Shown here: one piece after another, positions 20,630-64,000 of the stretch
How positions within the stretch are numbered: the stretch's first letter is position 1
How the letters are laid out: each line of letters begins with the position of its first letter
Source of the DNA: a virus
DNA length: 64,000 bases
Virus genome (UHGV): UHGV-0209617
Reading direction: 5' to 3' (one strand)
Made by a program: the position numbers and the translations under genes
The notes under the pieces: model-generated
Told to the model about the DNA's origin: nothing
The model's database searches: none
What the model saw: only the letters and a program-made list of their open reading frames with translations

Positions 20630-20807
20630 GGTGTCAAACGATGACAACCAGATGTAGAACAGGCACGAGGGGCTGCGGCAGTCAGGAACTCGACCGAGAG
20701 TTATCTGATGCGCTTATCGCAATCAGTGTCGTGTCAAAAAGAATCGCTGACCGTATTACAGCAGTCAGCGGCAGAGAAAAAAAAGAATATGGAAGGAGGA
20801 AGCCTAA

Positions 20808-49800: not shown

Positions 49801-50579
49801 GTGATATAGATGCCCTGCAGGATTTTCTAGGTTCTAATGATGCGCAGGATATGATGTATCTTGAAGGACAGCAGAATCTTGCCAGAGCCTATGTGGATAT
49901 TTGGAAGGAAGCCCATAAAACCACCGAGGATATGGTGGCTGACCTTGCTGTAAGCGTCAACAGCTCAATGGCTGACAGCCTTAAAAGCTTCATTACTGGC
50001 TCAAAGACTGCAATGGATGTGGTGCATGACCTTGGCAGAACCATCATGAACACAATAGCTGAAATCGTAGCCAAGAAAGCTGCCACCCAGATTGTTACCT
50101 CCATGTTTGGAGGATTCTTCAAGGATGGCGGTGAGCTGCCAGGATTTGCTTCGGGAGGCTCTATTGCCGGCGGATATATCAGCGGTGCGGGGACGGGTAA
50201 AAGCGACAGCATAGTTGCGTATCTTGAGAGAAGCGGTCAGTTCGTAAGGCTCTCTGATGGAGAGTTCGTCATGACTGCCGAGGCTACAAGGAAGAACCGC
50301 CCAATGCTTGAAGCCATGAACGCAGGTGCCTATGCTAATGGTGGCTTCATAACAGCTCCGGGAGTAAGACCAGCCTATGCCGGTTCATATTCTGTTGGAA
50401 GCAATCAGCCGGCTGGTGGTGTCATAGTAAACATTACAAATAACTCCGACAGCAGGGTTGAAGCAAGACAGGCAGGATTTGACTCGCAGGCCCAGCGTTA
50501 TATTTTGGATATTGTGATAGACGGAGCACAGAGAAATGTAAACGGTTTTGGAAATAATCTTAAAGCAGTGATGGGGTGA
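46872..50579 (+). CDS. Tape measure protein with embedded CHAP/NlpC-P60-like peptidoglycan hydrolase domain (GTG start)
   Basis: 1236 aa, Ala/Gln-rich coiled-coil-like segments; ENTCSIFASKML...GDVIEWGGHVGIYDG Cys/His hydrolase-like block. Confidence 0.8.
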   Translation: MSVISNLMVKIGADSSGLKKGLAEAGNQIKTSFNTAPVEAFSTQVDASRKTVEGLIGKMKGFAVLAAGGFGMTAMIKGIAEAGDNSYRLAQRMHITAAEAGALSRIMSITGGDVNSLSGAMMRLDKSFSSASTDGEQTRAILDAVGVSLTNQKGQLLPINEQLKNLAAGYKKATDAGYGQEFIMNTLGVKGMALVSTLEQYNEAAEAAGKVKTVGLDPKAMHELNMQLKIMQMESGQIQNALVMGFAPVVQEFLPGIMTGLQTTALFLRENKTEIAALTKAAVEFYLTMKAISLVTTAGANVLNFWKSISMAAKESAVVQEAVSAELTAKQISQINKVVAKSNQGYAKMQVDAIKAAQKQGMASEEARAKLEKDLLAIQLEAEKTAAFITRSFTAHFMEVNAAANAMAAGTAESMTAMGAAGVKATTAQTMATAELTAAHAAEGAAALRAGESNVAASAMATKATVSQTVATGELTVATVASGNAAAVAGAKTVSFTAGALKGIKALQAGVLALTGGWLGLAAAIAYAGYCLYEYQSEKIAEEKAHTYTVDGQQYEEKNGYFYTKDRVNPDWEPSPYDEFDDTAIIKGGELVTDNDLNEKLQAAWWERHKDDPDYKAHLEQEAAETKMREADSKLAELMQNLNVGTESGSKAPVKEPVTYEVAVPVGEDVVAAAMYHVGESWGENTCSIFASKMLEEAGITGLSDPNGDNMAAKAGAAYHDVNDGYQPKAGDVIEWGGHVGIYDGNGGYIASNTKTGVHHGSMDEAESWFGPVQGYISTAEYTGNKTVLKNMDSEAKAVEDATAKLNKAKEDAKKLFSSMESEIQRETGTEYSYGMNQIEANIRKKQVEINQLKESGVDTGMLEKELQDYETVLKSKIIDNWEKANEEIKGSTAVTLAEVKKNYIQAADEEYKVTLQKLAREREEKEKELLRDKEDAESRLAIDEWYAAESLKAMETRNKNIRASYSKLISDLEETGDIDALQDFLGSNDAQDMMYLEGQQNLARAYVDIWKEAHKTTEDMVADLAVSVNSSMADSLKSFITGSKTAMDVVHDLGRTIMNTIAEIVAKKAATQIVTSMFGGFFKDGGELPGFASGGSIAGGYISGAGTGKSDSIVAYLERSGQFVRLSDGEFVMTAEATRKNRPMLEAMNAGAYANGGFITAPGVRPAYAGSYSVGSNQPAGGVIVNITNNSDSRVEARQAGFDSQAQRYILDIVIDGAQRNVNGFGNNLKAVMG

Positions 50580-50583
50580 TTGT

Positions 50584-50943
50584 ATGCTTGTTTTTCCGGA
50601 TATTGAACCTAATATATCCTCTGCCAATGGCTGCGGAGACAGCTATAAGATGTCTATAAAAGACAGTACCGTTTCAACGGTGACAGATGGAAACTATAAA
50701 ATGACCAGACCACGCACGACCAGGATGCTGGCTGCGTGGTCTTTTTCCTGGGTGGCCTTATCTGAGGATGAGTTCAGGAAAATAGAGGACTTCTTCCGAA
50801 AGGTGGGTACCTTCCAGAAGTTCCTCTTTAATAATCCCATGGATGGCAAGGAATACACTGTGAGATTTTCCGAGCCACTTACAGATTGGCAGTATGTTCA
50901 TCCCTATGGCTGGCAGGGAAAGCTCAGTTTTGAGGAGGTGTAA
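50584..50943 (+). CDS. Minor tail protein (lambda gpM-like position)
   Basis: Position and size after the tape measure gene. Confidence 0.5.
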   Translation: MLVFPDIEPNISSANGCGDSYKMSIKDSTVSTVTDGNYKMTRPRTTRMLAAWSFSWVALSEDEFRKIEDFFRKVGTFQKFLFNNPMDGKEYTVRFSEPLTDWQYVHPYGWQGKLSFEEV

Positions 50944-50946
50944 GCC

Positions 50947-51531
50947 ATGCAGGTATGGTCACAGGCGGCAACCCTTGAAAAGAACAGCCTATCTTCGGAT
51001 ACACCGTTTCTTCTTCTGGTTGAGGTCATATCCAAGGAGATGTCAGAGCCGATATATCTGGTCAGAAATACAGAGAATATCGTATGGCGTGGAAAGGAAT
51101 GGACGGCCTTTCCCATAGAGGTGGAATCATCCTCCGAGGATGGAAAGACAATACCGTACATAAACATCAAGGTCAGCAACTGCGGAGGCATGATAGGTGC
51201 CTACCTTCAAAGGTATAACGGCCTTGTGGATTCCGAGATAAGGATTTATGTGGTACTTGCTAGCAATCTGCGATCTGAGTCAGCTGAGTTTGAGCTGGAC
51301 TTTCTTATAACCGAGGCAAAGTACACCGAGGACTGGATAACCTTTGTCCTGGGGGCAAGTGCAGAGCTGGTATCAAGATTTCCCACATTCCGCTATAACA
51401 AGAATTTCTGTCCTTTTATCTGCGGAGATGTGCGGTGCGGCTATGTGGGAAATGAAAGCTGTGTTAATACCCTGGATTCATGTAAGATTCCAGGAAGATT
51501 TGGCGGGGAGCCAGGGATGGTGAGTGCATGA
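50947..51531 (+). CDS. Minor tail protein L-like, with C-terminal cysteine cluster
   Basis: C-terminal FCPFICGDVRCGYVGNESC...C cluster, as in gpL-type tail tip proteins. Confidence 0.6.
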   Translation: MQVWSQAATLEKNSLSSDTPFLLLVEVISKEMSEPIYLVRNTENIVWRGKEWTAFPIEVESSSEDGKTIPYINIKVSNCGGMIGAYLQRYNGLVDSEIRIYVVLASNLRSESAEFELDFLITEAKYTEDWITFVLGASAELVSRFPTFRYNKNFCPFICGDVRCGYVGNESCVNTLDSCKIPGRFGGEPGMVSA

Positions 51532-51911
51532 TGTACAGTGATTTGATTGGTGTGCCATTTGAAGATGGCGGCAGGAACAAAAATGGTATGGACTGCTGGG
51601 GTCTTGTGATGGAGTGCTTTTTCCGTAAGGGAATAGTTCTGCCGGAATATGGTATATCTGCAGAGGAGCTTCTAAGAATTTCAGACAAAATGGCATCTGA
51701 AGAATCCAAATGGGAAAAGCTCACTGAACCGACAGACGGATGCCTTGTGCTTATCCGCACTGCTGAAGGTGCATGGGCAAACCATGTGGGAATCTATATC
51801 GGGGATGGCAGGTTCATCCATGCATATCCCGCAGCAGGGGTATGCATTTCTAAAATCTCTCGCTGGAAGAGTCACATTGTAGGTTTTTATTATCCGAAGG
51901 AGGGCGGCTGA
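51528..51911 (+). CDS. NlpC/P60-family tail-associated peptidase (gpK-like)
   Basis: DCWGLVMECF...H...GDGRFIHA Cys/His pattern. Confidence 0.7.
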   Translation: MMYSDLIGVPFEDGGRNKNGMDCWGLVMECFFRKGIVLPEYGISAEELLRISDKMASEESKWEKLTEPTDGCLVLIRTAEGAWANHVGIYIGDGRFIHAYPAAGVCISKISRWKSHIVGFYYPKEGG

Positions 51912-54900
51912 TGGTAAAGGTCATAATAATTGAAAATCCATTCGAGCCGCATATCCATGATGCATATGAGGTTCTATATACCGGTAAATCCTTGGAAAGC
52001 TACACATCCCTTGAAAGCAGGGATGTGTTCATCAACGGTCATAAGGCTGAAGATATAGCTATTCCAGCAGACGAGGACTGTATCATTTCCATTCCACACA
52101 TAGCAGGAGGCGGTGTAGGAAAGATTCTAGGCTTTGTGGCTATGGTAGCACTTACTGTGGTTACAGGTGGTATTGCTGCTAATGGTCTTACTGGCTTTCT
52201 TGGGCTTACCGTAAAGGGAGCGACCCTTGCCAGCTGTCTTATCTCAGGCGCTGTGATGTATCTGGGCGGCAGGCTCATAAATGCAGTGTTTCCGCAGGGG
52301 GCAGCTACCCAAAGTATTGGAGGATACAGCGAAGGACAGAAGACTCAGACCTATGGCTGGGATCTTCCGACAGTAGCAACAAGAGAAGGCGGCATCATAG
52401 GAGAAACCTATGGCACCTGCATTCCACAGCCCCAGCTCTTGGAGGAGCACGTTGAAACAATCGGTGGAAAGCAGTACCTTAATCTTCTATATTGCGGCGG
52501 TTATGGTGAAGTGGACAACATAACGGATATGCGGATTGATTCTACTCCCATTGACTGCTTTTCAAATGTACAGATAGAAAAGAGGTTTGGCACCAATGAC
52601 CAGAAGCCAATCTCCTTCTTTGACGATACTCCGACCGACCAGGGCGTGAGCCTTCTATTAGACCTCAATAAGCCAATCATCCGTACCACGGATTCCATCA
52701 AGGCATCAGCTCTTGAGGTAACTTTGGAGTGGCCTAATGGACTATACCATCTGAACAATGATGGCAACTATGAAAGTGCCAGCATCGTATGCAGGATAGA
52801 TTACAGGCTTCGCGGGGATGAAGCATGGATTTACCATAATTCCTATACGGTCAGCAACTCATCAGCGGATGCCTTCAGGCGTTCCTTCAAGTGGAAGGTA
52901 TCAAAGGCAGGGCAGTATGATGTAAAGCTGGTGCTTACAACAAAGCCATCTGGCTCAAGGTATATGACCTACACCAGCTGGTCTATCCTGACCTCATATA
53001 ATTCTGGCATTTACAGCAGGCCCAATAAGGTGCTTATTGGCCTTCGCATCCTGGCAACGAATCAGCTGTCGGGCGGAGTTCCTAACCTTACCTGGAAACA
53101 GACACGAAGCAGGGTGTATGTCTATAATCCGCATCTTAAATGCTATGAGATTAAGCCTGCCGACAATCCAATCTGGGCGGCATATGATATCCTTCATGGC
53201 TGCAGGTATCTGAAGAATATCAACACAGGAAGCTTTGAGTATGTGGTGGACGGATGTGCTCATGAGAGACTTGATGCCTATTACGATGAGTGGCTAAGTG
53301 CAGCAGCTTATGCTGATGAAGAAATAGTAAACCATGATGGCGAAAAGGAAAGACGCTTCAAGTTTGATGCGTTCTATGATACCGCCCAGAAACGCTATGA
53401 TGCAGCAGTCAAGGCTGCGGCAGTAGGACACAGTAACATAATAATCCATGGCTGTAACTACGGCATCACAGTGGATAGGCCGGGTATCATAACCCAGGTG
53501 TTCAGCGAAGGGAGAACCACAAAATCCTCTGTGATAGGCTCATTCTTAAGCAGGAGCGAAAGAGCCAGGTCTGTAGAGATTACCTATAATGATGAAAACA
53601 ATGACTACAAGAATACTCAGTTCACCCTGAGAAGTGCCTTGTATGACAGGGATATGGAGCAGGATAATACCGCTCAGCTTACTCTCTTTGGTGTGAGCCG
53701 AAGAAGCCAGGCATACCGTGAGGGTATCATGGCCCTGGCTGCATCAGAAAGACAGCTACAGACAATCGAGCTATCTACGGACATAAATGGCATTACGGCA
53801 GAATACGGGGATATCGTTGGTTACTCACACAGTATCAGCAGAATTGGCATCGCATCCGGCAGGATCGTAAGTGCCACTAAAAACACAGTGAAGCTGGATA
53901 AGAGCGTAACCATGGATGAGGGCAGAACCTATGAAATCTATCTTCAGACACGGAAGGATGAGCTTATACATAGGCTGGTCAAGACCGAGGAGGGCACAAC
54001 TGACCTTCTTACTGTGATGCTGCCGTTTGACACTGCTGTATCTGAATACGACTGCTATTCCTTTGGTGAGGCTGAAAGGGCAGTAAAGCCTTTCCGCATT
54101 GTGGGAGCAGAGCGTGACGGAGATTTTCTGGTGAAGCTGAAGCTCATAGAATATGACGAGGCAGTCTATGCTACCGAAATGGACTATAGTAAATATCCAA
54201 GGATTGACTACACATCATCCGATAGCTTTACCACAGATAACATAACCCTTACGGAAGATACCTATGTGCAAAAAGACGGTACTGTGGTATCTGCTATAGA
54301 TATCGAGTGGGAAAGCCAGTCGGTGTATCAGTCCTCCTTGGATGGCTACAGCGTTGAGATAACGGATATGGAGACTGATACCACAGAGGAGTTCATCGTA
54401 AGCGGTCTGTCTTACAGATACTCTGGGGTAAAGGCAGGAAATACCTATAAGGTAAGGGTGCGGCCTGTGGTTCATGGCAACCGCATCAACGGAAGGTCAG
54501 CATCCATAACCATCACGGGAAAGGTTACGCCACCAGGGGATGTGGCTTATATGTCACTTGTAGAGGTGGATGGCAAAATCCTCGTAACAATCCAGCAGGT
54601 GGCAGAGCCGGATATTGACCACTATGAGCTTAGGCTTGGCAGCAGCTGGGATAATTCCTTTAAGGTATGTGATTTTTCAGGAAGTCCTGTAACTGTCCAG
54701 CCAAGTATGAACGGCACCTGCACATACTTTGTAAAGGCAGTGGATACCTCTGGTAATAAGTCGGAAAATGCCTGCAGGCAGATCATAAACATCAGCAGCA
54801 TCACGGCAAACAATGTAATCCTTGAAAGAAACTTTGATATTCATGACTTTGCTGACTGGGACAATTTTTATGAGCATAGGGGAGCTTTGCTGATGGCAAG

Positions 54901-55603
54901 CAGAGAAAGAATCACTGACTTTGAGTATTTCTGGGAAATCTTCGACCAGCTTACCTATCTTGATGGTTCGGTGTATCTTCCGCTTATTGATTTAGGGGAA
55001 AACATCATAGATACTGACTGCTACTACATAGACAGCAAGGGAATCATCCATCAGCAGAATCTACGGCGCATAAGGGATTTTAAGTATTTTTCCGAGCTAT
55101 TCGAGAAGGATGACCGCCTTGCGGCTCCCGTATCCCTGGACAGTACATTCTTAAGGATTGCCATTGATGGTGATAACAGCAGTGATGTACTGAAGGCAGT
55201 GGAGTATCGGACAAGCATTGATGGATATACCTTCAGCAATTGGATAGCCGCATCCCAGACAGCCTTCAAGGGAAGGTTCGTGCAGATAAGGATTAATCTC
55301 AGCAGCATATCCGGTCATACCCAAGGATACATTAAATCAGTATGTGTCAGCATAGATGTGCCAGATACGGAGGTAATCCTTGAAAATGTACTCCTTAATG
55401 CGGGAGATAACTACATTCGGTATAATCACCGCTTCATGGAAAAGCCATCCTCGGTTGCCGTTTTTACGGCAGATGATAACGGCATGGCTGCAACATGGCA
55501 GATTACGGATTATGACAGGGATGGAGTACACCTTACCATATTCAATGCAAAAGGTGAAAGCTGTAGTGGTAAATTAATAAGAGCCATGGTTCGTGGCTAC
55601 TAA
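51911..55603 (+). CDS. Host-specificity (gpJ-like) tail tip protein
   Basis: 1230 aa immediately after the gpK-like gene. Confidence 0.7.
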   Translation: MVKVIIIENPFEPHIHDAYEVLYTGKSLESYTSLESRDVFINGHKAEDIAIPADEDCIISIPHIAGGGVGKILGFVAMVALTVVTGGIAANGLTGFLGLTVKGATLASCLISGAVMYLGGRLINAVFPQGAATQSIGGYSEGQKTQTYGWDLPTVATREGGIIGETYGTCIPQPQLLEEHVETIGGKQYLNLLYCGGYGEVDNITDMRIDSTPIDCFSNVQIEKRFGTNDQKPISFFDDTPTDQGVSLLLDLNKPIIRTTDSIKASALEVTLEWPNGLYHLNNDGNYESASIVCRIDYRLRGDEAWIYHNSYTVSNSSADAFRRSFKWKVSKAGQYDVKLVLTTKPSGSRYMTYTSWSILTSYNSGIYSRPNKVLIGLRILATNQLSGGVPNLTWKQTRSRVYVYNPHLKCYEIKPADNPIWAAYDILHGCRYLKNINTGSFEYVVDGCAHERLDAYYDEWLSAAAYADEEIVNHDGEKERRFKFDAFYDTAQKRYDAAVKAAAVGHSNIIIHGCNYGITVDRPGIITQVFSEGRTTKSSVIGSFLSRSERARSVEITYNDENNDYKNTQFTLRSALYDRDMEQDNTAQLTLFGVSRRSQAYREGIMALAASERQLQTIELSTDINGITAEYGDIVGYSHSISRIGIASGRIVSATKNTVKLDKSVTMDEGRTYEIYLQTRKDELIHRLVKTEEGTTDLLTVMLPFDTAVSEYDCYSFGEAERAVKPFRIVGAERDGDFLVKLKLIEYDEAVYATEMDYSKYPRIDYTSSDSFTTDNITLTEDTYVQKDGTVVSAIDIEWESQSVYQSSLDGYSVEITDMETDTTEEFIVSGLSYRYSGVKAGNTYKVRVRPVVHGNRINGRSASITITGKVTPPGDVAYMSLVEVDGKILVTIQQVAEPDIDHYELRLGSSWDNSFKVCDFSGSPVTVQPSMNGTCTYFVKAVDTSGNKSENACRQIINISSITANNVILERNFDIHDFADWDNFYEHRGALLMASRERITDFEYFWEIFDQLTYLDGSVYLPLIDLGENIIDTDCYYIDSKGIIHQQNLRRIRDFKYFSELFEKDDRLAAPVSLDSTFLRIAIDGDNSSDVLKAVEYRTSIDGYTFSNWIAASQTAFKGRFVQIRINLSSISGHTQGYIKSVCVSIDVPDTEVILENVLLNAGDNYIRYNHRFMEKPSSVAVFTADDNGMAATWQITDYDRDGVHLTIFNAKGESCSGKLIRAMVRGY

Positions 55604-55617
55604 GGAGGTAGAGATGA

Positions 55618-57972
55618 ATGATAAAGTTTTACGATAGCATGGGAGCCGCCCAGGGCATATCCGTCCTGTCGGACCTGGTGGATGCCTGTGACTTCTGGCA
55701 AAATGGCAAAGAGATTAAGTCGGGCAGTATTGCAAGAAGCTCAACGGACAGCCTTATTTATGCTGAGTGCATTGCAGGAGGCATAACAGGTGATGCAGAA
55801 CCCATCTGGGGGATAACAGATGGAACAGAGATAAACGATGGCAGCGTTAAATGGAAGGTGCATGATTTAAGAAAGGCACTTACTGCAGAAACGACTGACA
55901 GGTTCTCAGTTCCAAGGAAAATAAACGGCATAGAATTTGATGGCAGCAAGGATATAATCCTTCCGGCAGATTCCGTAGACGAGTCCACCTACATTGCAAA
56001 GGGACTGAAGGTTGGCGGTTTCTCTGGGAAGGATTTATTTATTTCCAGCGGTACGGCAAAGGTCAATGGCCGTACTGTAAACTTTGATGGTGGCAGCATT
56101 GAATTAGGGGAAAGGGAAACAGCCCTTGTTCATGTCACGGCAGAGGGGAAGCTGGGCAAGCGAAAGGCGGCATATCCAACGGAGTGGATTGATGACAATA
56201 CCATTGGCTTTTGGATTTTCAACAAGACAATAGCTGGTGATGCCGTGCCTAACATTGCTGTTGGAAAGTCAGCTGTAGCACAGAAAAATGACTTCATTCC
56301 ATACGGTGGCATTACATCGGTTGATGGTTGGGCGGATTATTCCCTGCAGACTGATGTGGCAACAGGTTATTTTGAGCTTCAGAATAACCTTGGCTTTATG
56401 ACGGGTGTTGTGCCATTTGAGTACAACATCCTTATAACACCAGATAAGATTGATGGCTCTACAGACTTCATTTTCAATTATGCAGGAAATGTTACGACCA
56501 TATACATCAACAGCAACGGCCTTCTTTACTGCGGTGGTCAGAACACTGGCTATATCTGCGAGACAGGGAGAACCTTCTTCCTGACCTATCAGTATGATGG
56601 CAGGATTGCCTATGTGTATATTGACGGAAGGCTTGTATTCCAGGTTACAGTAAATATCTCTCTTTCTCTGAATACCAGCCAGAACACAAGAATTGGCTGT
56701 GCCTATGATAAGTCGGATATGTTTCCGGCCACATTCCATTTCGTGGAGATCAGAAAAGCAATCCGTAAGCCGGAGGAGATTGCACATATATCAAATGAAC
56801 TGCTTTTGCCATGCTTCTATGAAAAGGGCAGTTCTACTTATCCTGTCATTCCATCTGAGTATACCAATTATGCCGAGTGGAAATTCGATGATGAGACACC
56901 GGATACTTTGAAGGAAACCAACGGTATCAATAGCGGTGTGGTCGGCAGTACTGTTACTCCCACACAGGAAGAAAGCCAGCTTGGACTTGGCAAGGCTATG
57001 CGTTTTACGGGAGCCAATACCTGCTATATGAGTATCGGCACCATTACAATCCCAGAGGAGTTTACCATCATAGCTGTAGCTAATCCATTCCAGCTCACTG
57101 GACTGAACCGAATCTTTGGCAACAAGATTGGTGCAAGCCAAACCTTCATGTTCTGCTCCTCACAGGATGGAACGCTTGGAGTGTCATTTTACACGGGAAA
57201 TCAGAACAGCAACTCATGGATTAACTCTGGCCTTAAGCCGAATGTGGGAATGGAAAACTTCATTGCTCTTAGGACTACCGCCAAGAATCACTATTTTAGA
57301 GTGAACAGGGAAACGGCAGTAAGGCAAAATGCTTATTGGAGAAAGCCGGTATCTACAGAATTTGCCATAGGTGCCTGCTATGACAATAACTATCCATTCA
57401 AGGGTACATTAGCCTATCTGCTCTTTGTGCCTAGAGCCTTGACTGATGCAGAAATAGAGGAAATGTATGACTGCCTTATGGTAAAGGGCAGGAAGAACAT
57501 CATTGATGATATGGTTCCCGCAGATGCCGCAGTTGTTGCCATGGCAAGGGCTGATGGGGAGTCTGTCATTGAGTATAACGATGCTGACTACAAGTTCGGC
57601 AGGCGAGAAGGCGCGGTTGGCGGCAATAGGAAGGTGTTCCTTGGCTATAAGTATTTCTCTGGCACATCGGTATTATCATGGGATAACCCATTCGGGACAA
57701 GCAGAGTGAAACGATACTTCACATGGGCATCTGATGCCAAGGGTACCAATGAGATTGAAGCCATGAAGATGGTCTATGTGTATAACACTGGCTGGGGAGG
57801 TCTGTGGCCATTCTCGGATTCTGACACAGGAAACGATGATATGAAGATTACCTGTTATGTTAGCACCGTCTATGGAGGTGTTGCTCTATACAACGGAGCA
57901 TGGAAATCCTCTGGCTATATTGGCTGCTATGTGGAGGTAATGGAAGATTATACGGGGGTTGATGGCAGATGA
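55618..57972 (+). CDS. Tail fiber / receptor-binding protein candidate
   Basis: 784 aa at the end of the tail module. Confidence 0.55.
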   Translation: MIKFYDSMGAAQGISVLSDLVDACDFWQNGKEIKSGSIARSSTDSLIYAECIAGGITGDAEPIWGITDGTEINDGSVKWKVHDLRKALTAETTDRFSVPRKINGIEFDGSKDIILPADSVDESTYIAKGLKVGGFSGKDLFISSGTAKVNGRTVNFDGGSIELGERETALVHVTAEGKLGKRKAAYPTEWIDDNTIGFWIFNKTIAGDAVPNIAVGKSAVAQKNDFIPYGGITSVDGWADYSLQTDVATGYFELQNNLGFMTGVVPFEYNILITPDKIDGSTDFIFNYAGNVTTIYINSNGLLYCGGQNTGYICETGRTFFLTYQYDGRIAYVYIDGRLVFQVTVNISLSLNTSQNTRIGCAYDKSDMFPATFHFVEIRKAIRKPEEIAHISNELLLPCFYEKGSSTYPVIPSEYTNYAEWKFDDETPDTLKETNGINSGVVGSTVTPTQEESQLGLGKAMRFTGANTCYMSIGTITIPEEFTIIAVANPFQLTGLNRIFGNKIGASQTFMFCSSQDGTLGVSFYTGNQNSNSWINSGLKPNVGMENFIALRTTAKNHYFRVNRETAVRQNAYWRKPVSTEFAIGACYDNNYPFKGTLAYLLFVPRALTDAEIEEMYDCLMVKGRKNIIDDMVPADAAVVAMARADGESVIEYNDADYKFGRREGAVGGNRKVFLGYKYFSGTSVLSWDNPFGTSRVKRYFTWASDAKGTNEIEAMKMVYVYNTGWGGLWPFSDSDTGNDDMKITCYVSTVYGGVALYNGAWKSSGYIGCYVEVMEDYTGVDGR

Positions 57973-58202
57973 TGTATTACAACAGAAAAACAGGAGACTT
58001 GAGCAGTGTTCCACCATGGGGCGCTGCTTTTTTACTGCCCAAAATCAGGAAGGCAAGATTTCCAGATTGGGAAGAAGTGGATGATGGCTTTGTTCCAAAG
58101 AATAAGAAGGTTGAGCTATCTGAGCCTGAAACCAGCAAGGCTGACATCGAGCTTGCTGAGGCTTTAATAGAAATCTACAGCATATTGGAGGAGAGAAAAT
58201 GA
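57969..58202 (+). CDS. Hypothetical small phage protein
   Basis: ORF translationally coupled to the fiber gene. Confidence 0.5.
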   Translation: MMYYNRKTGDLSSVPPWGAAFLLPKIRKARFPDWEEVDDGFVPKNKKVELSEPETSKADIELAEALIEIYSILEERK

Positions 58203-58357
58203 AGATTTACAAGTACAAGGCAAAGGCCTACGCAGTGCTGGTAAAGGCAGGAAGGTACATACTGTCTGAAGATCAGAGGGAGAACAAGAAGCAGGAGCTT
58301 GTACCAGAGGAGTATGCAGATCTTGTGGCAGAGATTCTTCTTGGAGGCGATAGCTGA
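58199..58357 (+). CDS. Small protein (52 aa), not in the ORF track
   Basis: ATG overlaps the upstream stop (ATGA), GGAGGAGAGAAA SD, and its stop overlaps the next ATG (ATGA). Confidence 0.5.
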   Translation: MKIYKYKAKAYAVLVKAGRYILSEDQRENKKQELVPEEYADLVAEILLGGDS

Positions 58358-58725
58358 TGGATGAGAGGGATGTAGTCATGCTTTACATCCAGGTTGGTGG
58401 TGCGTTACTTGTCAGTGCCATCACAGGCGTAATGGGTGCTCTGGTACGTGAGGTATGGGCGCTTAGAAAGGAACGACAGGAAAAAGCCATAGAGGAAGAA
58501 GCTGAACGGGGAAAACGCAGAAAGGCATTAAAGGCACTCTTGAAGTTTCAGCTTCATCGCTCCTGGCAGTATCACACCAGCAATGGCTTCATGCCAGCCA
58601 ACGAGATGAGCCTTCAGACAGAGCTGTATGAGGCTTATCACGATATGGGAGGTAACGGCACCGGGACAAAGCTCTATAACGAGATGATGGAGCTGCCACA
58701 TATCAAGCACACGGAGGTAAAGTAA
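58357..58725 (+). CDS. Membrane protein, holin-like (one N-terminal TM segment plus charged coiled region)
   Basis: VMLYIQVGGALLVSAITGVMGALV hydrophobic segment; GGAGG SD; in the lysis cassette. Confidence 0.5.
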   Translation: MDERDVVMLYIQVGGALLVSAITGVMGALVREVWALRKERQEKAIEEEAERGKRRKALKALLKFQLHRSWQYHTSNGFMPANEMSLQTELYEAYHDMGGNGTGTKLYNEMMELPHIKHTEVK

Positions 58726-59030
58726 TGAAGAACTTAATAGTACAGTTTTCTGCATGGGCGCAGGCCAACTGGCTTGCGCTTGTTATTTTTATGATTTTTT
58801 CCATGATGGCATTCCTGTGCATGGTCATGGGAAGCTGGCTTTATGGCTACTGGTCAAATGCTCTCTGCGGCACGAAGTTTGAACTTGGTAGCTGCTGGCA
58901 GGGAATCACTGTTGTTATCACGGGCCTTGGCGGTGTTGCAGCACTGGCCAAGGCTGCATGGACCAAGTATTCAACGGACAGCCAGTATAACAGCATGATG
59001 GGGAGTCATCCATACGAAAGGGGTAAGTGA
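58725..59030 (+). CDS. Holin (two predicted TM segments)
   Basis: Two hydrophobic stretches; immediately upstream of the endolysin. Confidence 0.6.
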   Translation: MKNLIVQFSAWAQANWLALVIFMIFSMMAFLCMVMGSWLYGYWSNALCGTKFELGSCWQGITVVITGLGGVAALAKAAWTKYSTDSQYNSMMGSHPYERGK

Positions 59031-59602
59031 TTATGATTAAGGGTATTGATGTATCGGAGAACAACGGCACTGTAGATTGGCAGGCAGTAAAGAATGCCGG
59101 GATTGAGTTTGCTATTGTAAGAAGCTCCTATGGTAAGACGGGAGTGGATGAGAAGTTCCTGGAAAATGTAAATGGTGCTCATGCAGTGGGGCTGAAGGTT
59201 GGTGCTTACCATTATGGCTATGGCCTGACTCCGGCTGATGCAGTGCTTGAAGCAAGGAACTGCCGTGAGGTAATTGATGAGGCAGGAGTGCTTCTGGAGC
59301 TTCCTGTTTTCTATGACATGGAAGATGCTGATGGCTATAAAGAAAGACACGGATTTTGGTTTGACCCAGAGAATGCCACAGGTATCTGCAGGGCATTCCT
59401 GGATAACATTGGCCTGAACTGTGGTGTATACGCATCATACAGCTGGCTTTGTGATTTGATTGACTGGCGCAGTCTCGGCTGCTCAGTCTGGAACGCAGAA
59501 TGGGGAGGTAGCGATGATATTGAAGGATATATGTGGCAGTTTACGGAAAAGCTTTATATCTCTGGTAAGCAGTTTGATGGAAACTATCTCTACAACTGGT
59601 AA
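59027..59602 (+). CDS. GH25-family lysozyme endolysin (muramidase)
   Basis: IKGIDVSENNGTVDWQAVKNAGIEFAIVR ... GAYHY pattern typical of GH25. Confidence 0.8.
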   Translation: MIMIKGIDVSENNGTVDWQAVKNAGIEFAIVRSSYGKTGVDEKFLENVNGAHAVGLKVGAYHYGYGLTPADAVLEARNCREVIDEAGVLLELPVFYDMEDADGYKERHGFWFDPENATGICRAFLDNIGLNCGVYASYSWLCDLIDWRSLGCSVWNAEWGGSDDIEGYMWQFTEKLYISGKQFDGNYLYNW

Positions 59603-59616
59603 GGCGGTGATGGGGC

Positions 59617-60036
59617 ATGAGAAAATCATTCTGGTTTGTGCTGCTGTTATTGCTCTTGTGTGTGCCGCAGCTTTCCTTTGCTGCAGAGAGGACATACCAA
59701 GTGACGGAGACAGAGCTGACGAGGTTAGAACAGAACTTGACGGAGCTATCCGAAATGAACAGCAAGCAATCAATGAACTTAGAACAGCAGAAGATACAGC
59801 TTCAGAACTCGGATTTGCAGTTGAAGCAGGCCGAAGAGAAGTACAGTCTGCTATCCAGTCAAATGAAGAACTTGGAGAAGGAAATGCTAGAGCAGCAGGA
59901 CTCATTAGAGAATGCCAGGAAATCCTTCGAACAGTTCGCCAAAGAGGAACAATTGAAGAGAGATAAGCTGAAGCGTGAAAAGAATATAGGATACTGGCTT
60001 GCAGGGATACTAGCTGTAGTATGTATTGCCAGATAA
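59617..60036 (+). CDS. Signal peptide + coiled-coil + C-terminal membrane anchor protein (unknown function)
   Basis: MRKSFWFVLLLLLLCVPQLSFAAE signal-like N-terminus; heptad-like Q/E/K/L-rich middle; hydrophobic C-terminus IGYWLAGILAVVCIAR. Confidence 0.6.
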   Translation: MRKSFWFVLLLLLLCVPQLSFAAERTYQVTETELTRLEQNLTELSEMNSKQSMNLEQQKIQLQNSDLQLKQAEEKYSLLSSQMKNLEKEMLEQQDSLENARKSFEQFAKEEQLKRDKLKREKNIGYWLAGILAVVCIAR

Positions 60037-60040
60037 GTGA

Positions 60041-60084
60041 AAAGCCCGATGTGGAGAAAAAATTTCTCTGCATCGGGCTTTTTC
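60041..60084 (+). terminator. Rho-independent terminator after the lysis cassette
   Basis: AGCCCGATG ... CATCGGGCT stem followed by TTTTT. Confidence 0.7.
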
Positions 60085-60174
60085 AGTTATTGGTCATATA
60101 CATAACGAGTAGCAAACGGCGCTAATAAACGTGCGTATATAAATTATAAAATAAGCACGAATGTTAAAATTATC

Positions 60175-60203
60175 TTTACAACTGTGCTTATTTAATTTAT
60201 AAT
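60175..60203 (+). promoter_or_regulatory. Consensus-like promoter for abiE (TTTACA, 17 bp, TATAAT) flanked by ATAAGCAC repeats
   Basis: Hexamers read directly; ATAAGCACG at 60151 and 60204 and its inverse GTGCTTAT at 60184 overlap the promoter. Confidence 0.6.
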
Positions 60204-60228
60204 ATAAGCACGGTTGGAGGTGATTGCC

Positions 60229-60810
60229 ATGAATGACATTGAAAAGCTTGTTGATGAGTCAGGAATGATTACAACTAGAGATATAGTGAAAAATAATCAG
60301 TCAAAAGTAGAATTTTACAATTACCTGAGAAAAAATGATTTTGAACAAGTATCGCGTGGTATATATGCTTCTAAGGATGCGTGGGTAGACCCATTATTGA
60401 TTGCGCATATGAGATGTCCTAAAGCGGTGATCTCTCATGATGTGGCACTTCATTATTATGGCTTGGTTGATAGAGAGCCTTCAGCTCCAACGCTTACTAT
60501 TTATTCTGGATACAACACAAGCAGGTTAAAAGAAGCAGGGTACAAGGTGTTTTTCGTGAAGAAGGAATACCTTGATGCTGGCAAAGAAGAGGTTGTAAAT
60601 TTTGATGGCAACATCATTCCTATGTATAACCTTGAAAGAACGATGTGTGACCTTGTCAGAAACAGAAGCAGCTTTGAGATTCAAGATTTCAATGCAGCTA
60701 TAAAAGCGTATGCCAGAAAAAAGGAAAAGAATCTTACAAGGCTATTTGAATATGCGAAAATGCTTAGGGTGGAAAAATTGATGCGGTCATATATGGAGGT
60801 GCTTTTGTAA
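60229..60810 (+). CDS. abiEi: AbiEi-family antitoxin / transcriptional regulator
   Basis: N-terminal DNA-binding-like region ending ...VSRGIYA; paired with a DUF1814-type nucleotidyltransferase; GGAGGTGA SD. Confidence 0.75.
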   Translation: MNDIEKLVDESGMITTRDIVKNNQSKVEFYNYLRKNDFEQVSRGIYASKDAWVDPLLIAHMRCPKAVISHDVALHYYGLVDREPSAPTLTIYSGYNTSRLKEAGYKVFFVKKEYLDAGKEEVVNFDGNIIPMYNLERTMCDLVRNRSSFEIQDFNAAIKAYARKKEKNLTRLFEYAKMLRVEKLMRSYMEVLL

Positions 60811-61664
60811 TGATCTTATCAGCTGCACAGGCAAGAGGCAGGATTAAGAATATTGTGGCAAAAAATGGTGCGGACCCAAGACTGCTTATGAGAATTTATA
60901 TGATGGAGAGATTTTTGGAACGAGTATCCCTTTCTGCATACAAGGATAATTTCATCATTAAGGGCGGAATGCTTATAACATCATTGGTTGGTATTTCCAT
61001 GCGGTCAACTATGGATATTGACACAACTGTAAAAGGCCAGGATGTAAGCATGGAAAATGCACAGCGTATTGTTAAAGAAATTGCTGACATTCAGATTGAT
61101 GATGGGGTTTCTTTTGTGATTAAAGATGTAGAAAACATAATGGATGAGATGGAATATCCAGGAATCAAATTTCACTTGGAAGTGTTATTAGACAAAATGG
61201 TTACGCCAATAAAGATTGATGTTTCTACGGGCGATGCAATTACACCCAGAGCGATTGAATATAATTACAAGCTTATGCTTGAAGATAGAGAAATCGGGCT
61301 GTGGAGCTATAATCTGGAAACAATCCTTGGGGAAAAATTACAGACGATACTTGTACGTGAACGTGCAAACACCAGAATGAGAGATTTCTATGATATATGT
61401 GTATTGGTAGAAATGTATGACAGTAAGATAAATACTGTCAATTTCAAAGCAGCATATGAGGCGACCTGTAGAAAAAGAGGGTCATTACACTTATTTGGTA
61501 ATGAAGGAAAAATACTGGATATAATAGCTGGTGAAAGTAAAATGATTGATAGATGGACAAATTATCAGAAGAAGTTTTCTTATGCATCTGATATCAGTTT
61601 TGAGAAAGCTATTCAGTGTGCAAAGGGGTTAATTTCATTCTTGAAAAATAGTACCGGAAAATAA
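60810..61664 (+). CDS. abiEii: AbiEii-family nucleotidyltransferase toxin (DUF1814-type)
   Basis: 284 aa directly coupled to the AbiEi gene; typical gene pair. Confidence 0.75.
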   Translation: MILSAAQARGRIKNIVAKNGADPRLLMRIYMMERFLERVSLSAYKDNFIIKGGMLITSLVGISMRSTMDIDTTVKGQDVSMENAQRIVKEIADIQIDDGVSFVIKDVENIMDEMEYPGIKFHLEVLLDKMVTPIKIDVSTGDAITPRAIEYNYKLMLEDREIGLWSYNLETILGEKLQTILVRERANTRMRDFYDICVLVEMYDSKINTVNFKAAYEATCRKRGSLHLFGNEGKILDIIAGESKMIDRWTNYQKKFSYASDISFEKAIQCAKGLISFLKNSTGK

Positions 61665-61892: not shown

Positions 61893-62270
61893 ATGACAGA
61901 AGTAGAGAAGAAAAGAATAAAGGAGCTTCATTATCAGGGGCTGGGATATCGGAAGATTGCTGCCGAACTTGGCATGTCCCCTAATACTGTGAAATATGTA
62001 ACCAAGAATCTGGTAGCTACGGATAATCATACCTGCAGGAACTGCGGCATCAAAGTTTTACAGACAGCAGGACGCAAGGAGAAGAAGTTCTGTTCAGATA
62101 AATGCCGTATGGATTGGTGGAACAGCCATCTCGATACTGTTAATCGCAAGGGATATAAGACCTTTACCTGTAAATGCTGCAGTAAGGAATTCATGGCTTA
62201 TGCCAGGACAGGCAGGAAATACTGCAGCCGGGAATGTTATTTCAAGGCTAGATATGGAGGTGCAAGATGA
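61893..62270 (+). CDS. HTH protein with C-terminal zinc-ribbon motifs (Tn916 orf7-like position)
   Basis: LHYQGLGYRKIAAELGMSPNTVKY HTH followed by several CxxC pairs. Confidence 0.6.
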   Translation: MTEVEKKRIKELHYQGLGYRKIAAELGMSPNTVKYVTKNLVATDNHTCRNCGIKVLQTAGRKEKKFCSDKCRMDWWNSHLDTVNRKGYKTFTCKCCSKEFMAYARTGRKYCSRECYFKARYGGAR

Positions 62271-62458
62271 GTACGCCGTTGAATGAAAAGTACACACTTA
62301 GTATAAAGGAATCCGCCAAGTATTTCGGTATTGGCATGAAAAGGCTGCGGCGGCTTGCAGAAGAACATATGGACACCTTTGCTATCCGCTGTGGCAACAA
62401 GTATCTCATCATCCGCACTGAGTTTGAAGCCTTTCTGAAGGATTCAGAAGAAATATAG
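62267..62458 (+). CDS. xis: Excisionase-family DNA-binding protein (Tn916 Xis-like)
   Basis: EKYTLSIKESAKYFGIGMKRLRRLAEEH resembles the Tn916 Xis N-terminus. Confidence 0.7.
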   Translation: MSTPLNEKYTLSIKESAKYFGIGMKRLRRLAEEHMDTFAIRCGNKYLIIRTEFEAFLKDSEEI

Positions 62459-62526
62459 CTTATATGCCAAATAGTAGTTGAATAATATCGCAAACAGAGT
62501 GATATATAGTGTCGGAGGTGATGAGC

Positions 62527-62751
62527 ATGCAGAAATCAGATCTTGGGGAACGGGAATACCTTAGCAAGAAGTATACTGCCGTCTTCTTCGGACTCAGTCC
62601 CAGGCGGCTTGAGCGATTCCTCAAAGCAGATGACTATGATTTTGTTGTGTATTATAAGAAAAGAACACTGATATTAAGGGAGGCCTTCAACAGATATCTC
62701 TGGAGGAATCCTGATGTAAGGGAGATGTTGAAACGTGGCAAGACGAGGTGA
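62527..62751 (+). CDS. Second excisionase-like HTH protein
   Basis: YLSKKYTAVFFGLSPRRLERFLK; start chosen at the ATG 8 nt after GGAGG. Confidence 0.55.
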   Translation: MQKSDLGEREYLSKKYTAVFFGLSPRRLERFLKADDYDFVVYYKKRTLILREAFNRYLWRNPDVREMLKRGKTR

Positions 62752-64000
62752 AGTAAGAAGGGATTCAAGGAACAGGCTGTTAAGGATAGGTGAATCCCAG
62801 CGTAAAGATGGCAAGTACATGTTCAAATACCATGTGGATGGCAGACCGTATTTCGTCACCAGCTGGAGACTGCTGCCTTCAGATAGGCAGCCAAAAGGTA
62901 CAAAGCCTACCCTTTCACTGAGGGAATTGGAAAAGAAGGTAGGAAGGGAAATCGACCTGCAGATGAGCCTTGAACTCAGGAACTGCACGGTTAAGGATTT
63001 GGTTGAGCGGTATTTGGCTACCAGGATTAATGCAAAGCCGAATACCAAGATGGGGTATAATACTGTAAAGAATGTACTGGAAAGTGAGCCCTTTTATCAT
63101 AGGAAGATAAAAACAATCAAGGTATCTGATGCAAAGATATTCCTCATCAAGTTGCAGGAAAATGGCAGGAAGGCCAGCACGGTGAAATGCATCAGAGGGG
63201 TTCTCCGCCCGGCTTTTCAGATGGCTGTAGATGATGATATGCTGGTCAAGAATCCTTTTGCTTTCGAGCTGGCAGGTGTCCTGGTAAATGACTCAGTCAC
63301 AAGGGAGGCTGTCAGCAGGAGGGAAATGAAAAAGTTCTTGCAGTTTGTCAGGAACGATGATTGCTACTGCAAATACTATGAGGCAGTACATATACTGTTC
63401 CATACGGGAATGCGAATATCTGAATTCTGCGGTCTGACGATAAATGACCTTGATATGGAGAACAGAATCATAGATATAAACCATCAGCTGGTGCGTGTGG
63501 GAATGAAGCTGATAATACAGACCACAAAGACCAACGCAGGCACCAGAAGGATTCCGATGTCTGAGGATGTATATGAAATGTTCAAGAGCATATTGGCTAA
63601 CAGGCCAACAGGCATAGATGAGAAAGCCGTTGATGGGTATAAGGGGTTCCTCTACCTTGATAATGCCGGACTGCCACTTGTGGCAATGCACTGGTCAAAC
63701 AGGTTCAGGCATATGGTCGGGCGCTACAATGACATTTACAAAGAACAGATGCCTAAAATCACTCCTCACGTCTGCCGCCATACCTACTGCAGCAACATGG
63801 CAAAATCGGGAATGCATCCAAAGATCCTGCAGTACCTTATGGGGCATTCGGACATTGGTGTGACGCTCAATACATATACCCACTTAGGGCTTGAGGACGC
63901 CCAGGGCGAGATGGACAGACTGAAGGATGCCCAACAGGAGATTGACAAGGGCAAGGTAAGGGAACTGCCACCAACCAAGGCTCAATTCAAAGTAGTATAA
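62735..64000 (+). CDS. int: Tyrosine site-specific integrase (Tn916 Int-like), GTG start, stop codon at the window end
   Basis: N-terminal RRDSRNRLLRIGESQRKDGKYMFKY resembles the Tn916 Int arm-binding domain; C-terminal ...HVCRHTYCSNMAKSG...LMGHSDIGVTLNTYTH carries the recombinase R...H-x-x-R...Y region. Confidence 0.85.
   Translation: MARRGEVRRDSRNRLLRIGESQRKDGKYMFKYHVDGRPYFVTSWRLLPSDRQPKGTKPTLSLRELEKKVGREIDLQMSLELRNCTVKDLVERYLATRINAKPNTKMGYNTVKNVLESEPFYHRKIKTIKVSDAKIFLIKLQENGRKASTVKCIRGVLRPAFQMAVDDDMLVKNPFAFELAGVLVNDSVTREAVSRREMKKFLQFVRNDDCYCKYYEAVHILFHTGMRISEFCGLTINDLDMENRIIDINHQLVRVGMKLIIQTTKTNAGTRRIPMSEDVYEMFKSILANRPTGIDEKAVDGYKGFLYLDNAGLPLVAMHWSNRFRHMVGRYNDIYKEQMPKITPHVCRHTYCSNMAKSGMHPKILQYLMGHSDIGVTLNTYTHLGLEDAQGEMDRLKDAQQEIDKGKVRELPPTKAQFKVV

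Follow-up and report, generated by a model that had tools for sequence, protein, structure and literature searches.

A dual-coding pair of coiled-coil membrane proteins at the end of a prophage lysis cassette is a candidate spanin-like device of phages infecting diderm Firmicutes

The window, a stretch of 64,000 nucleotides from the virus genome UHGV-0209617, contains a prophage lysis cassette in which the last genes are two overlapping reading frames, referred to here as A and B. All features of the cassette described below lie on the plus strand. A putative holin of 101 amino acids with two hydrophobic segments (58725..59030) lies outside the A/B pair, matches phrog_28789, a family of unknown function (E 3e-34), and overlaps the start of the endolysin gene by 4 nt. 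In related loci the gene at this position belongs to Phage_holin_4_1, a different family from that in the window. The endolysin (59027..59602, 191 aa) consists of a single GH25 muramidase domain (Pfam PF01183, E 9.2e-23) with no wall-binding domain, and also matches PHROG endolysin families with E-values down to 5e-34. A Shine-Dalgarno-like element, AAGGCGGTG, read from the sequence at 59601..59609, precedes the starts of A and B; no promoter-like site was found between the endolysin and the pair. The late/lysis operon is closed by an intrinsic terminator at 60040..60084, a long stem followed by UUUUU, that was detected by folding and overlooked by a simple pattern scan. The region 60034-60095 folds with -33.6 kcal/mol (z -9.67), and none of 200 shuffles is equally stable. 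After the terminator, an AbiEi/AbiEii pair at 60214-61664, near the prophage end, has its own promoter match (11/12).

Gene A (59617..60036) encodes 139 amino acids from an ATG start, in the +1 frame relative to B, and begins 15 nt past the endolysin stop codon (59600-59602). Residues 1-22 (MRKSFWFVLLLLLLCVPQLSFA, then AE; nt 59617-59682) form a Sec-type signal peptide, in which the n-region is basic, the h-region is rich in Leu, the c-region contains a Pro and small residues occupy positions -3 and -1. Of 126 A family members, 107 have a comparable (-3,-1) site, at a median of 3 residues ahead of a conserved Tyr, and the signal looks cleavable and of the SPase I type. A lipobox-like motif is present in only 3 of the 126 members; the window itself has LLLC at residue 15, but Cys15 is Ser in most relatives, and A was rejected as a lipoprotein. 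The mature N-terminus is conserved (Y27-x-[IV]-T-E-x-E-L-T-x-L-E-x-N-L) and is followed by a coiled coil of 12 unbroken heptads with a best period of 3.5 (residues about 30-118, nt 59704-59970). The heptad power of the family profile is reached by 0 of 2000 shuffles, while the corresponding fraction is 0.0035 for the window sequence alone. Mature A, of ∼117 aa, is predicted to be a single helix with pLDDT >90 and is neither short nor Pro-rich nor unstructured; the AlphaFold2 model is one continuous helix with pLDDT 91-96 over residues 40-120.

At the C-terminus of A, residues 124-138 (IGYWLAGILAVVCIA, nt 59986-60030) are hydrophobic and precede a terminal Arg. This putative anchor lies within the final 70 nt of the gene, which are free of overlap with B, and it is conserved. 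Across the family, the uncharged C-terminal run spans 12-16 residues and is weakly hydrophobic (median Kyte-Doolittle 1.9), with a cluster of net charge +4 before it and one K/R after it. The topology of A is uncertain because this segment is short and the basic cluster lies on the predicted periplasmic side, contrary to the positive-inside rule.

Gene B (59610..59966, 118 aa) occupies the -1 frame relative to A, a frame that is open with a start codon in all relatives examined. It starts 7 nt upstream of A, and 97% of its length is overlapped by A. Near its N-terminus B has the basic residue K5; a transmembrane helix (residues 6-25, nt 59625-59684) comes next, and a short linker connects it to a long amphipathic helix (residues 34-117). 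A basic N-terminal region with ∼20 hydrophobic residues is common to all B relatives, the AlphaFold2 model contains helices at 3-26 and 34-117, and the heptad periodicity of B is matched by 0 of 2000 shuffles. Based on the positive-inside rule, B would be a type II inner-membrane protein (N-in, C-out) with a long periplasmic helix. Its architecture is that of an Rz-like i-spanin, and B is the more Rz-like of the two partners.

In most lineages, A and B begin at tandem out-of-frame starts, ATGNATG, behind one ribosome-binding site. The overlap begins at B codon 2-6, and most relatives have GGAGG or GAGG located 4-6 nt before the B ATG and 8-10 nt before the A ATG. A single ribosome-binding site would yield both proteins. 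A similar arrangement is known from lambda S105/S107, in which two starts a few nt apart behind one ribosome-binding site provide two lysis proteins per mRNA. In contrast with A and B, which are wholly different proteins, the lambda starts are in frame and their products differ by two residues.

Codon-level comparisons demonstrate that A and B are two real genes sharing ∼350 nt, with both frames kept open and protein-like by selection. When A is recoded synonymously, 7.4-9.9 stops are expected in frame B (P(0) <2e-4 per locus), and when B is so recoded, 4.5-9.1 stops are expected in frame A (P(0) <=0.002 per locus), whereas no stops are observed inside A or B at 11 diverse loci. The same -1 frame in 19 other genes of the window has one stop per 11.2 codons. 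Among complete viral loci, frame B is open for at least 73 codons in 74 of 74 (17 clusters at 50% identity). In the same 74 loci the third frame is stop-rich; its open runs have a median length of 7 codons and never exceed 14, which rules out a third overlapping gene. Divergence at the wobble positions of A is suppressed (0.243 versus 0.386 in the adjacent amidase gene at the same loci). For a locus scan the broad A alignment is too diverse, and a narrower alignment is usable. The hydrophobicity of the B transmembrane segment exceeds that of synonymous recodings of A (P <=0.002), as does the heptad periodicity of B (P <=0.021), and the heptad periodicity of A exceeds that of synonymous recodings of B (P <=0.011). 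The same nucleotides specify the heptad core residues of both proteins. A and B are conserved to the same degree, and gene callers have yielded proteins from both frames: databases contain 329 representative clusters of A and 221 B proteins.

Genes for coiled coils rich in Glu, Gln, Lys and Leu can yield long open alternative frames through skewed codon content, gene callers usually report one frame per locus, and an antisense ORF of 196 aa (59483-60073) is open in the window as well; that just a single frame is a genuine gene is nevertheless extremely improbable, given that chance openness is rejected in both directions at every locus tested, that openness in both frames persists across lineages down to ∼30% identity, that the start codon, hydrophobic N-terminus and heptad periodicity retained in each frame exceed the constraint from its counterpart, that the A anchor is conserved outside the overlap, and that the antisense ORF, rejected as a gene, is fully open in just 2 of 74 loci. 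The preliminary description of this locus reported an ORF after the endolysin with a signal-peptide-like N-terminus, a heptad-like middle, a hydrophobic C-terminus and a strong terminator behind it. Each of these features is confirmed here, and the single gene that it described is replaced by a dual-coding pair with B in the other frame.

Conserved synteny provides good support for a role of the pair at the end of the lysis cassette. The pair directly follows the endolysin in the window and in loci L001, L002 and L024-L036, and in 14 of the 17 family clusters the gene closest upstream encodes a peptidoglycan hydrolase. These hydrolases belong to at least six unrelated types, namely GH25, Amidase_2, Amidase_3, Glucosaminidase, M15_3 and M15_4. 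The gap from the endolysin stop codon to the pair is 7-14 nt; in L028 the B ATG overlaps the endolysin stop codon, and in L034 the B gene as called shares sequence with the endolysin 3' end. In the L037 subfamily, the pair lies two genes past an amidase and does not adjoin it. The A/B DNA is 82-84% identical between prophages that have tail genes of 71% identity and unrelated endolysins. The position relative to the endolysin is conserved, whereas the downstream cargo differs in every phage group.

The lysis cassette of the window has 94% nucleotide identity to a contig of an Anaerovibrio sp. MAG (locus L003), which points to an Anaerovibrio-like Negativicute as the probable host. A host is named for few family members only; these organism-named relatives are all in Negativicutes, with the closest in Anaerovibrio genomes and another in a Dialister MAG. 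The flanks of L034 and L036 contain a Firmicute-type L21-Prp-L27 operon beside an RND efflux pump, and no decisive outer-membrane marker. Veillonella, Dialister, Selenomonas and Anaerovibrio are diderm Firmicutes that are plentiful in the mouth, gut and rumen, and their outer membrane is tethered by OmpM. Negativicutes are diderm Firmicutes that lack LolA and LolB (PMC5007114). The locus had been described beforehand as noteworthy in the case of a host with an outer membrane, and the affiliation of the cassette and its named relatives bears this out.

Searches of Pfam, NCBIfam, PHROGs and PADLOC returned no match above the curated cut-off for A or B. Sub-threshold matches to DUF6746, DUF7201, TIGR04211 ('SH3 and anchor'), tropomyosin, ATP synthase b and the Lpp alanine zipper reflect a coiled coil with an anchor only and were discarded. 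No match was found in GenBank phages by blastn of the cassette or by tblastn of two divergent A proteins and one B, and a sequence search of the PDB returned nothing informative. The B model has no match among predicted viral structures, which is no surprise for a single helix. Among the matches of B with an annotated function, Rz-like spanin PHROGs prevail, with six Rz-like families, all weak; phrog_89 is matched in 11 of 27 members, and phrog_214 has a best E-value of 8.7e-6. Rz-like spanin PHROGs recur among the weak matches of A too, and such HMM matches may reflect just a hydrophobic N-terminus with a coiled coil. The literature searched contains nothing relevant on spanins or lysis in phages of Negativicutes and does not address escape from diderm Firmicutes.

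The position and architecture of the pair invite comparison with the known spanins. The lambda Rz/Rz1 genes (embedded) and the P2 LysB/LysC genes (overlapped) are likewise the last lysis-cassette genes of phages with an outer-membrane host, and Rz1 lies in the +1 frame of Rz as A does in the +1 frame of B. B resembles Rz in its transmembrane domain at the N-terminus and in its periplasmic domain, which is a helical coiled coil of similar size to that of Rz. Two-component spanins are required for disruption of the outer membrane, and without them cells end as spheres enclosed by it. The second product of the two-component spanins is an outer-membrane lipoprotein that is short or Pro-rich. In contrast, A is neither, has no lipobox, and combines a Sec signal, a 12-heptad coiled coil and a C-terminal anchor. 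Genes for o-spanins typically start at 0.4-0.5 of the i-spanin length, whereas A starts at the very beginning of B. Periplasmic Cys residues that form intermolecular disulfides have been proposed to be general for two-component spanins (PMC6139136). Such residues are not conserved in A/B, with an ectodomain Cys in 18 of 126 A members and, at the C-terminal tip of B, Cys in 63 and Ser in 54 of 119 members. The hosts differ as well, as those of A/B are without Lol.

The unimolecular spanin T1 gp11 shares with A an N-terminal export signal, a periplasmic domain, the last place in the cassette and a length of about 135 aa, and its C-terminal transmembrane segment would correspond to the putative C-terminal anchor of A. 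The two differ in that T1 gp11 has a lipoprotein signal, an outer-membrane anchor formed by acyl chains and a predicted beta-strand domain, whereas A has an SPase I-type signal and an all-helical ectodomain. A also differs in having an obligatorily co-encoded partner. Both o-spanins and u-spanins are defined by the lipobox, and the surveys that define them cover phages of Proteobacteria and similar hosts (PMC6139136; PMC12596118). A is neither an o-spanin nor a u-spanin because it has no lipobox and a helical ectodomain. A hidden o-spanin is rejected, as no lipobox ORF was found in or near the cassette in any frame; the sole lipobox ORF of the window in any frame lies 38 kb away at 20804-21004 on the minus strand. 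The spanin-like reading in the preliminary description holds with respect to the topology and the position in the lysis cassette, but not as a canonical spanin. Phages may also exchange spanins for other devices where their own biology or the envelope of the host calls for it, as with the phiKT gp28 'disruptin' and the mycobacteriophage LysB (10.1101/515445, PMC8309991). In contrast with A/B, these are a small cationic peptide (gp28) and an esterase (LysB), and neither is a membrane-anchored coiled coil or dual-coded.

Taken from sequence and predicted structure, the function that we modestly favor for A/B is that of a lipoprotein-independent, spanin-like device that disrupts the outer membrane. 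The N-terminus of B and the C-terminus of A would both anchor in the inner membrane, and the two proteins would form a rod ∼12-13 nm long. At the distal end of this rod, the mature N-terminus of A would come together with the C-terminus of B, these two being the best conserved segments. Following the action of the holin and the endolysin, the A/B complex would engage and disrupt the outer membrane, and thus perform the job of Rz/Rz1 in Proteobacteria phages, minus the lipoprotein. A device without a lipoprotein would be explained by the host, because the LolA/LolB pathway that could deliver a lipoprotein is absent from Negativicutes. Neither A nor B has an identifiable outer-membrane anchor, as A is without a lipobox and both have polar distal tips, and with both proteins predicted in the inner membrane the model leaves the contact with the outer membrane without explanation.

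The most durable alternative keeps the pair in the lysis cassette and gives it a regulatory role in lysis, whether as an antiholin, as a timing or holin-accessory factor, or through tethering or activating the endolysin. The synteny fits such a regulator equally, A and B are both predicted to be anchored at the site of holin action, tandem starts are known from holin/antiholin pairs such as S105/S107, and an outer-membrane anchor cannot be identified in the pair. We nonetheless consider it unlikely, as known antiholins resemble their holins or bind via small domains, and a periplasmic coiled coil of 12-13 nm has no obvious regulatory role. The combination of the pair with unrelated holins and six endolysin types argues against a specific partner. 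Moreover, the function-annotated PHROG matches are mostly to Rz-like spanins, with holin families matched in 7 of 74 A members and in no B member.

Two further alternatives are improbable. One is that A alone or A with B is a membrane protein expressed from the prophage for lysogenic conversion or superinfection exclusion, the latter having been raised in the preliminary description. The locus lies near the prophage end and adjoins the accessory AbiEi/AbiEii genes, secreted or anchored coiled-coil proteins are known among exclusion systems, and one B member weakly matches a superinfection-exclusion PHROG. However, the AbiE genes have their own promoter-like site whereas the pair has none before it, and the spacing to the endolysin stop codon is close, extending to overlap in L028. 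The pair stays with the endolysin while the downstream genes vary, and PADLOC provides just sub-threshold matches to the coiled-coil regions of SMC-like proteins, which is coiled-coil noise. Superinfection exclusion gained no support from these analyses.

The other is that A is a unimolecular spanin of reversed design with B as its helper, in which the N-terminal hydrophobic segment or the C-terminal anchor stays in the inner membrane, and the C-terminal helix, which is short, rich in Gly/Ala and flanked by cations, is set free to insert into the outer membrane, the thinner of the two. The short and weakly hydrophobic C-terminal run of A, with its flanking charges, is a marginal stop-transfer sequence that resembles releasable (SAR-like) or membrane-active cationic segments, and A shares with T1 gp11 the last place in its cassette (PMC6139136). 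We give this design little credence: it is pure inference, cleavage of the signal that looks cleavable in most members would remove the N-terminal anchor, and there is no known precedent for Sec-exported alpha-helical anchors that reach an outer membrane unaided. The conservation of B, equal to that of A, also weighs against it.

Within the favored reading of A/B as a spanin-like device, a broader proposal can be put forward tentatively, at slightly less than even chances. A/B may represent a third spanin class, a lipoprotein-independent complex of two long co-encoded coiled coils that fuses or disrupts the outer membrane, is co-initiated from out-of-frame tandem starts, and arose in phages whose diderm Firmicute hosts are unable to sort lipoproteins to the outer membrane. 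The conserved distal head of such a complex may dock on a host component, for example the coiled-coil stalk of OmpM. If this proposal is true, the class would also stand out by the unusual length of its dual-coding region, whose two products are both well-folded helical proteins and have their heptad registers matched.

The A/B family is a concrete and widespread candidate for the means by which phages escape from diderm Firmicutes. As gene callers report one frame per locus, half of the system is missing from every annotated genome. With ∼115 codons that encode two structured coiled coils at once, the family also provides a useful case for the study of overlapping-gene evolution.

ORF A (59617-60036, + strand) encodes a protein of 139 aa and starts 15 nt past the endolysin stop codon. 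Its N-terminus, MRKSFWFVLLLLLLCVPQLSFA/AE, contains n-, h- and c-regions as in a Sec signal peptide, and a (-3,-1) site is present in 107 of the 126 family members at a median of 3 residues ahead of a conserved Tyr. Residues ~30-118 form an unbroken heptad repeat with a best period of 3.5; the heptad power of the family profile is matched by none of 2000 shuffles, and that of the window sequence alone by a fraction of 0.0035. The AlphaFold2 model of A is a single helix with pLDDT 91-96 across residues 40-120. A hydrophobic stretch (residues 124-138) precedes the terminal Arg, and downstream of the stop codon lies a hairpin (-33.6 kcal/mol, z -9.7) followed by a U-tract. The signal peptide, heptads, hydrophobic C-terminus, terminator hairpin and directly upstream endolysin of the preliminary description are all confirmed.

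The best-conserved block of the A family is the mature N-terminus, Y-x-[IV]-T-E-x-E-L-T-x-L-E-x-N-L, and the coiled-coil middle is variable. A second conserved block (S-L-x-x-A-N-x-S-L-x-x-Y-x-K-E-E) is accompanied by a basic cluster, e.g. R-I-K-R-Q-R-N, which precedes an uncharged run of 12-16 aa and one K/R. Being short, with reversed charges on its flanks, the C-terminal segment may be unstable as a stop-transfer sequence. Lipobox-like motifs occur in just 3 of the 126 family members; Cys15 of the window protein, a rejected candidate, is Ser in most relatives.

Translation of homologous loci in all frames reveals a second gene, ORF B (59610-59966, + strand; 118 aa), which starts 7 nt upstream of A in the -1 frame relative to it. 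A therefore occupies the +1 frame of B and extends 70 nt beyond the B stop codon, and this unshared tail holds the C-terminal hydrophobic segment of A. The B sequence, MGHEK-IILVCAAVIALVCAAAFLCC-REDIPSDGDRADEVRTEL...LIRECQEILRTVRQRGTIEER, runs from a basic N-terminus through a transmembrane segment of 20 residues into a long helix, with helices at residues 3-26 and 34-117 in the AlphaFold2 model. In the B family, a start of the form M-x-x-K-K leads into the transmembrane segment, G-A-D-x-V-R-x-E-L is predicted to lie directly outside the membrane, and a variable helix ends in the conserved tip D-A-E-I-I-x-E-[CS]-Q-x-I-L-x-R-V-R-E-R-G. By its predicted topology and modeled fold, B has the structure that defines an i-spanin.

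The nucleotides of A residue j-2 are shared with B residue j, such that the same bases write the a/d core of A (L34, L37, L41, L44...) and the Ala/Val/Leu core of B (A36, V39, L43, A46...). In each of two conserved nucleotide blocks, the bases that encode the membrane-distal tip of one protein also encode the membrane-proximal part of its partner. The starts in most lineages read ATGNATG, with a single GGAGG or GAGG positioned 4-6 nt before B and 8-10 nt before A; the start region in the window is ATGGGGCATG.

Dual coding by A and B, together with their membership in the lysis cassette, is established computationally with high confidence. Synonymous recoding of 11 loci (5000 recodings per locus, with codons drawn from the phage genes of the window) gives 7.4-9.9 expected stops in frame B when A is recoded, with no stop-free recoding among the 5000 at any locus, and 4.5-9.1 in frame A when B is recoded (P(0) at most 0.002). 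The 11 loci contain no stop inside A or B, even with A proteins as divergent as ~30% identity. Stops occur once per 11.2 codons in the corresponding -1 frame of 19 other window genes, where the longest open run spans 90 codons; the probability of 115 open codons is 2e-5. The explanation that one gene is real and the second frame is open by accident is statistically excluded.

A family pattern retrieves 79 IMG/VR loci, 74 of them with a complete A (49 clusters at 90% identity, 27 at 70% and 17 at 50%). Frame B is open for at least 73 codons past the conserved Tyr in all 74 (median 84), and the third frame is open for 7 codons at the median and never for more than 14. Divergence is more even across codon positions in the A frame (0.175, 0.150 and 0.243) than in the adjoining amidase gene of the same loci (0.142, 0.110 and 0.386). 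The features of each protein are present without being forced by the other frame: N-terminal hydrophobicity (P at most 0.002) and heptad periodicity (P at most 0.021) of B exceed those of recodings, as do heptad periodicity (P at most 0.011) and signal-peptide hydrophobicity (P between 0 and 0.11) of A. A 196-aa antisense ORF (59483-60073, - strand) spans the entire region and is open in the window; serving as a negative control, it is fully open in just 2 of the 74 related loci and is therefore rejected as a gene and regarded as a by-product of doubly constrained sequence.

Public proteins have been called from both frames, though in separate records. At E below 1e-3, A matches 329 representative clusters, most of which (nearly all) are 130-160 aa long and align end to end, and B matches 221 proteins. 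Three database proteins (P0125, P0139 and P0173) and a MAG locus (L008:3075-3493) switch frame midway, from A to B or from B to A; in L008, a 1-nt indel is present, and the A-like frame has two stops and the B-like frame none. These switches are probably sequencing errors or decay, and may otherwise be frameshifted fusion products.

The cassette of the window consists of a putative two-TM holin (58725-59030, +), an overlapping single-domain GH25 endolysin of 191 aa (59027-59602, +; Pfam E 9e-23) and the pair. Across unrelated phage backbones the pair directly follows the endolysin, and in 14 of 17 family clusters its closest upstream neighbour encodes a peptidoglycan hydrolase. Six catalytic types are represented (GH25, Amidase_2, Amidase_3, Glucosaminidase, Peptidase_M15_3 and M15_4/VanY), all of 122-254 aa with the catalytic domain alone detected, a short format typical of endolysins from phages whose hosts have an outer membrane. 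The B ATG overlaps the endolysin stop codon in locus L028, and in L034 the B gene as called and the 3' end of the endolysin gene overlap. Relative to three prophages (L001, L002 and L004), the window has 71% nucleotide identity in tail genes, 82-84% in A/B DNA, and an unrelated holin and endolysin. The lysis module is mosaic in this comparison (window 49600-60000), with an Amidase_3 endolysin in the prophages in place of GH25. In the large subfamily of L017-L023 and L037, the pair lies two genes downstream of an Amidase_2, and the gene after it encodes a conserved Cys/Trp-rich membrane protein of 197 aa (Pfam DUF7338; e.g. L037:10423-11016).

Three small ORFs of 77, 52 and 122 aa (57969-58725, +) separate the tail-fibre gene from the putative holin; the largest product, of 122 aa, has a hydrophobic segment at its N-terminus, matches the function-unknown family phrog_4105 and may be a further cassette component. 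Genes downstream of the pair vary everywhere, with AbiE in the window and recombinases, Xis-Int or HicAB elsewhere. Right after the lysis terminator, an AbiEi-like antitoxin (198 aa; weak Pfam match) and an AbiEii toxin (284 aa; E 3e-37) at 60214-61664 (+) have their own sigma-70-like promoter match (11-of-12; 60175-60203) and resemble cargo for defence, lying between the lysis genes and the integrase. A putative tyrosine-type-integrase-like ORF (62735-64000, +) continues beyond the right end of the window, and small HTH genes (61893-62270, 62267-62458 and 62509-62751) lie ahead of it; the integration module of the prophage thus appears to lie downstream of the lysis genes, as in L024.

A contig of an Anaerovibrio sp. 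MAG (L003) matches the window cassette at 94% identity. The named relatives, Anaerovibrio lipolyticus, Anaerovibrio sp. JC8, an 'uncultured Veillonellaceae' MAG and Dialister micraerophilus, span two orders of Negativicutes, and no relatives are found among 50,697 GenBank phage records. In Negativicutes, OmpM tethers an LPS outer membrane and LolA and LolB are missing; these bacteria may send no lipoproteins to the outer membrane, as the authors suggest (PMC5007114). A Lol-sorted o-spanin or u-spanin would thus not be usable by such a phage, which would still have to breach the outer membrane after holin and endolysin action. No lipobox ORF is present near the cassette in any frame; the sole ORF of the window with a lipoprotein-type signal (20804-21004, -; 66 aa, MRAFFFGASGFVASAALFLAALFLTGC...) lies 38 kb away, antisense to + strand ORFs, and may be spurious.

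On balance, and with modest confidence, the best-supported function of the pair is that of a spanin-equivalent that disrupts the outer membrane, given its cassette-end position, +1 overlap, Rz architecture, long coiled coils and PHROG matches. Rz-like spanins dominate the function-annotated matches of B (six families, best E 8.7e-6) and recur among those of A; these weak matches may reflect architecture alone. Both proteins would be anchored in the inner membrane, B through its N-terminus and mature A through its C-terminus. If the anchors share one membrane, the helices would associate antiparallel, and the conserved tips would meet ~12-13 nm from it (~85 residues at 0.15 nm each) and engage the outer membrane or its tether. 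Neither protein has a recognisable outer-membrane anchor; the pair may alternatively regulate lysis instead of disrupting the outer membrane. Another alternative is a reversed unimolecular design in which the cationic, Gly/Ala-rich tail of A inserts into the outer membrane. A role in superinfection exclusion, which the preliminary description had placed beside spanins, or in lysogenic conversion is disfavoured because no promoter-like site precedes the pair, a terminator and then a strong promoter match follow it, its endolysin linkage is conserved, and PADLOC support is absent. The spanin comparison is partly supported, being upheld by position and weakened by the missing lipobox of A.

The pair shares with two-component spanins its place at the end of the cassette, an overlap in which the second gene occupies the +1 frame, Rz architecture in the first product (B) and, by prediction, long periplasmic coiled coils in both products. 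In contrast with o-spanins and u-spanins, A lacks the defining lipobox and has a different fold from both. No periplasmic cysteines are conserved in A or B, and the out-of-frame tandem start differs from described spanins. While o-spanin genes typically begin at 0.4-0.5 of the i-spanin length (PMC6139136), the A/B overlap runs from ~codon 2 to the end of B. A 2025 survey states that phages of Gram-positive hosts lack spanins and mentions neither Negativicutes nor diderm Firmicutes (PMC12596118). For Negativicutes phages, the searchable literature yielded no reports of spanins or of any other factor for outer-membrane lysis. The A/B pair resembles spanins by its position, its genetic logic and one half of its architecture, and lies outside every defined spanin class.
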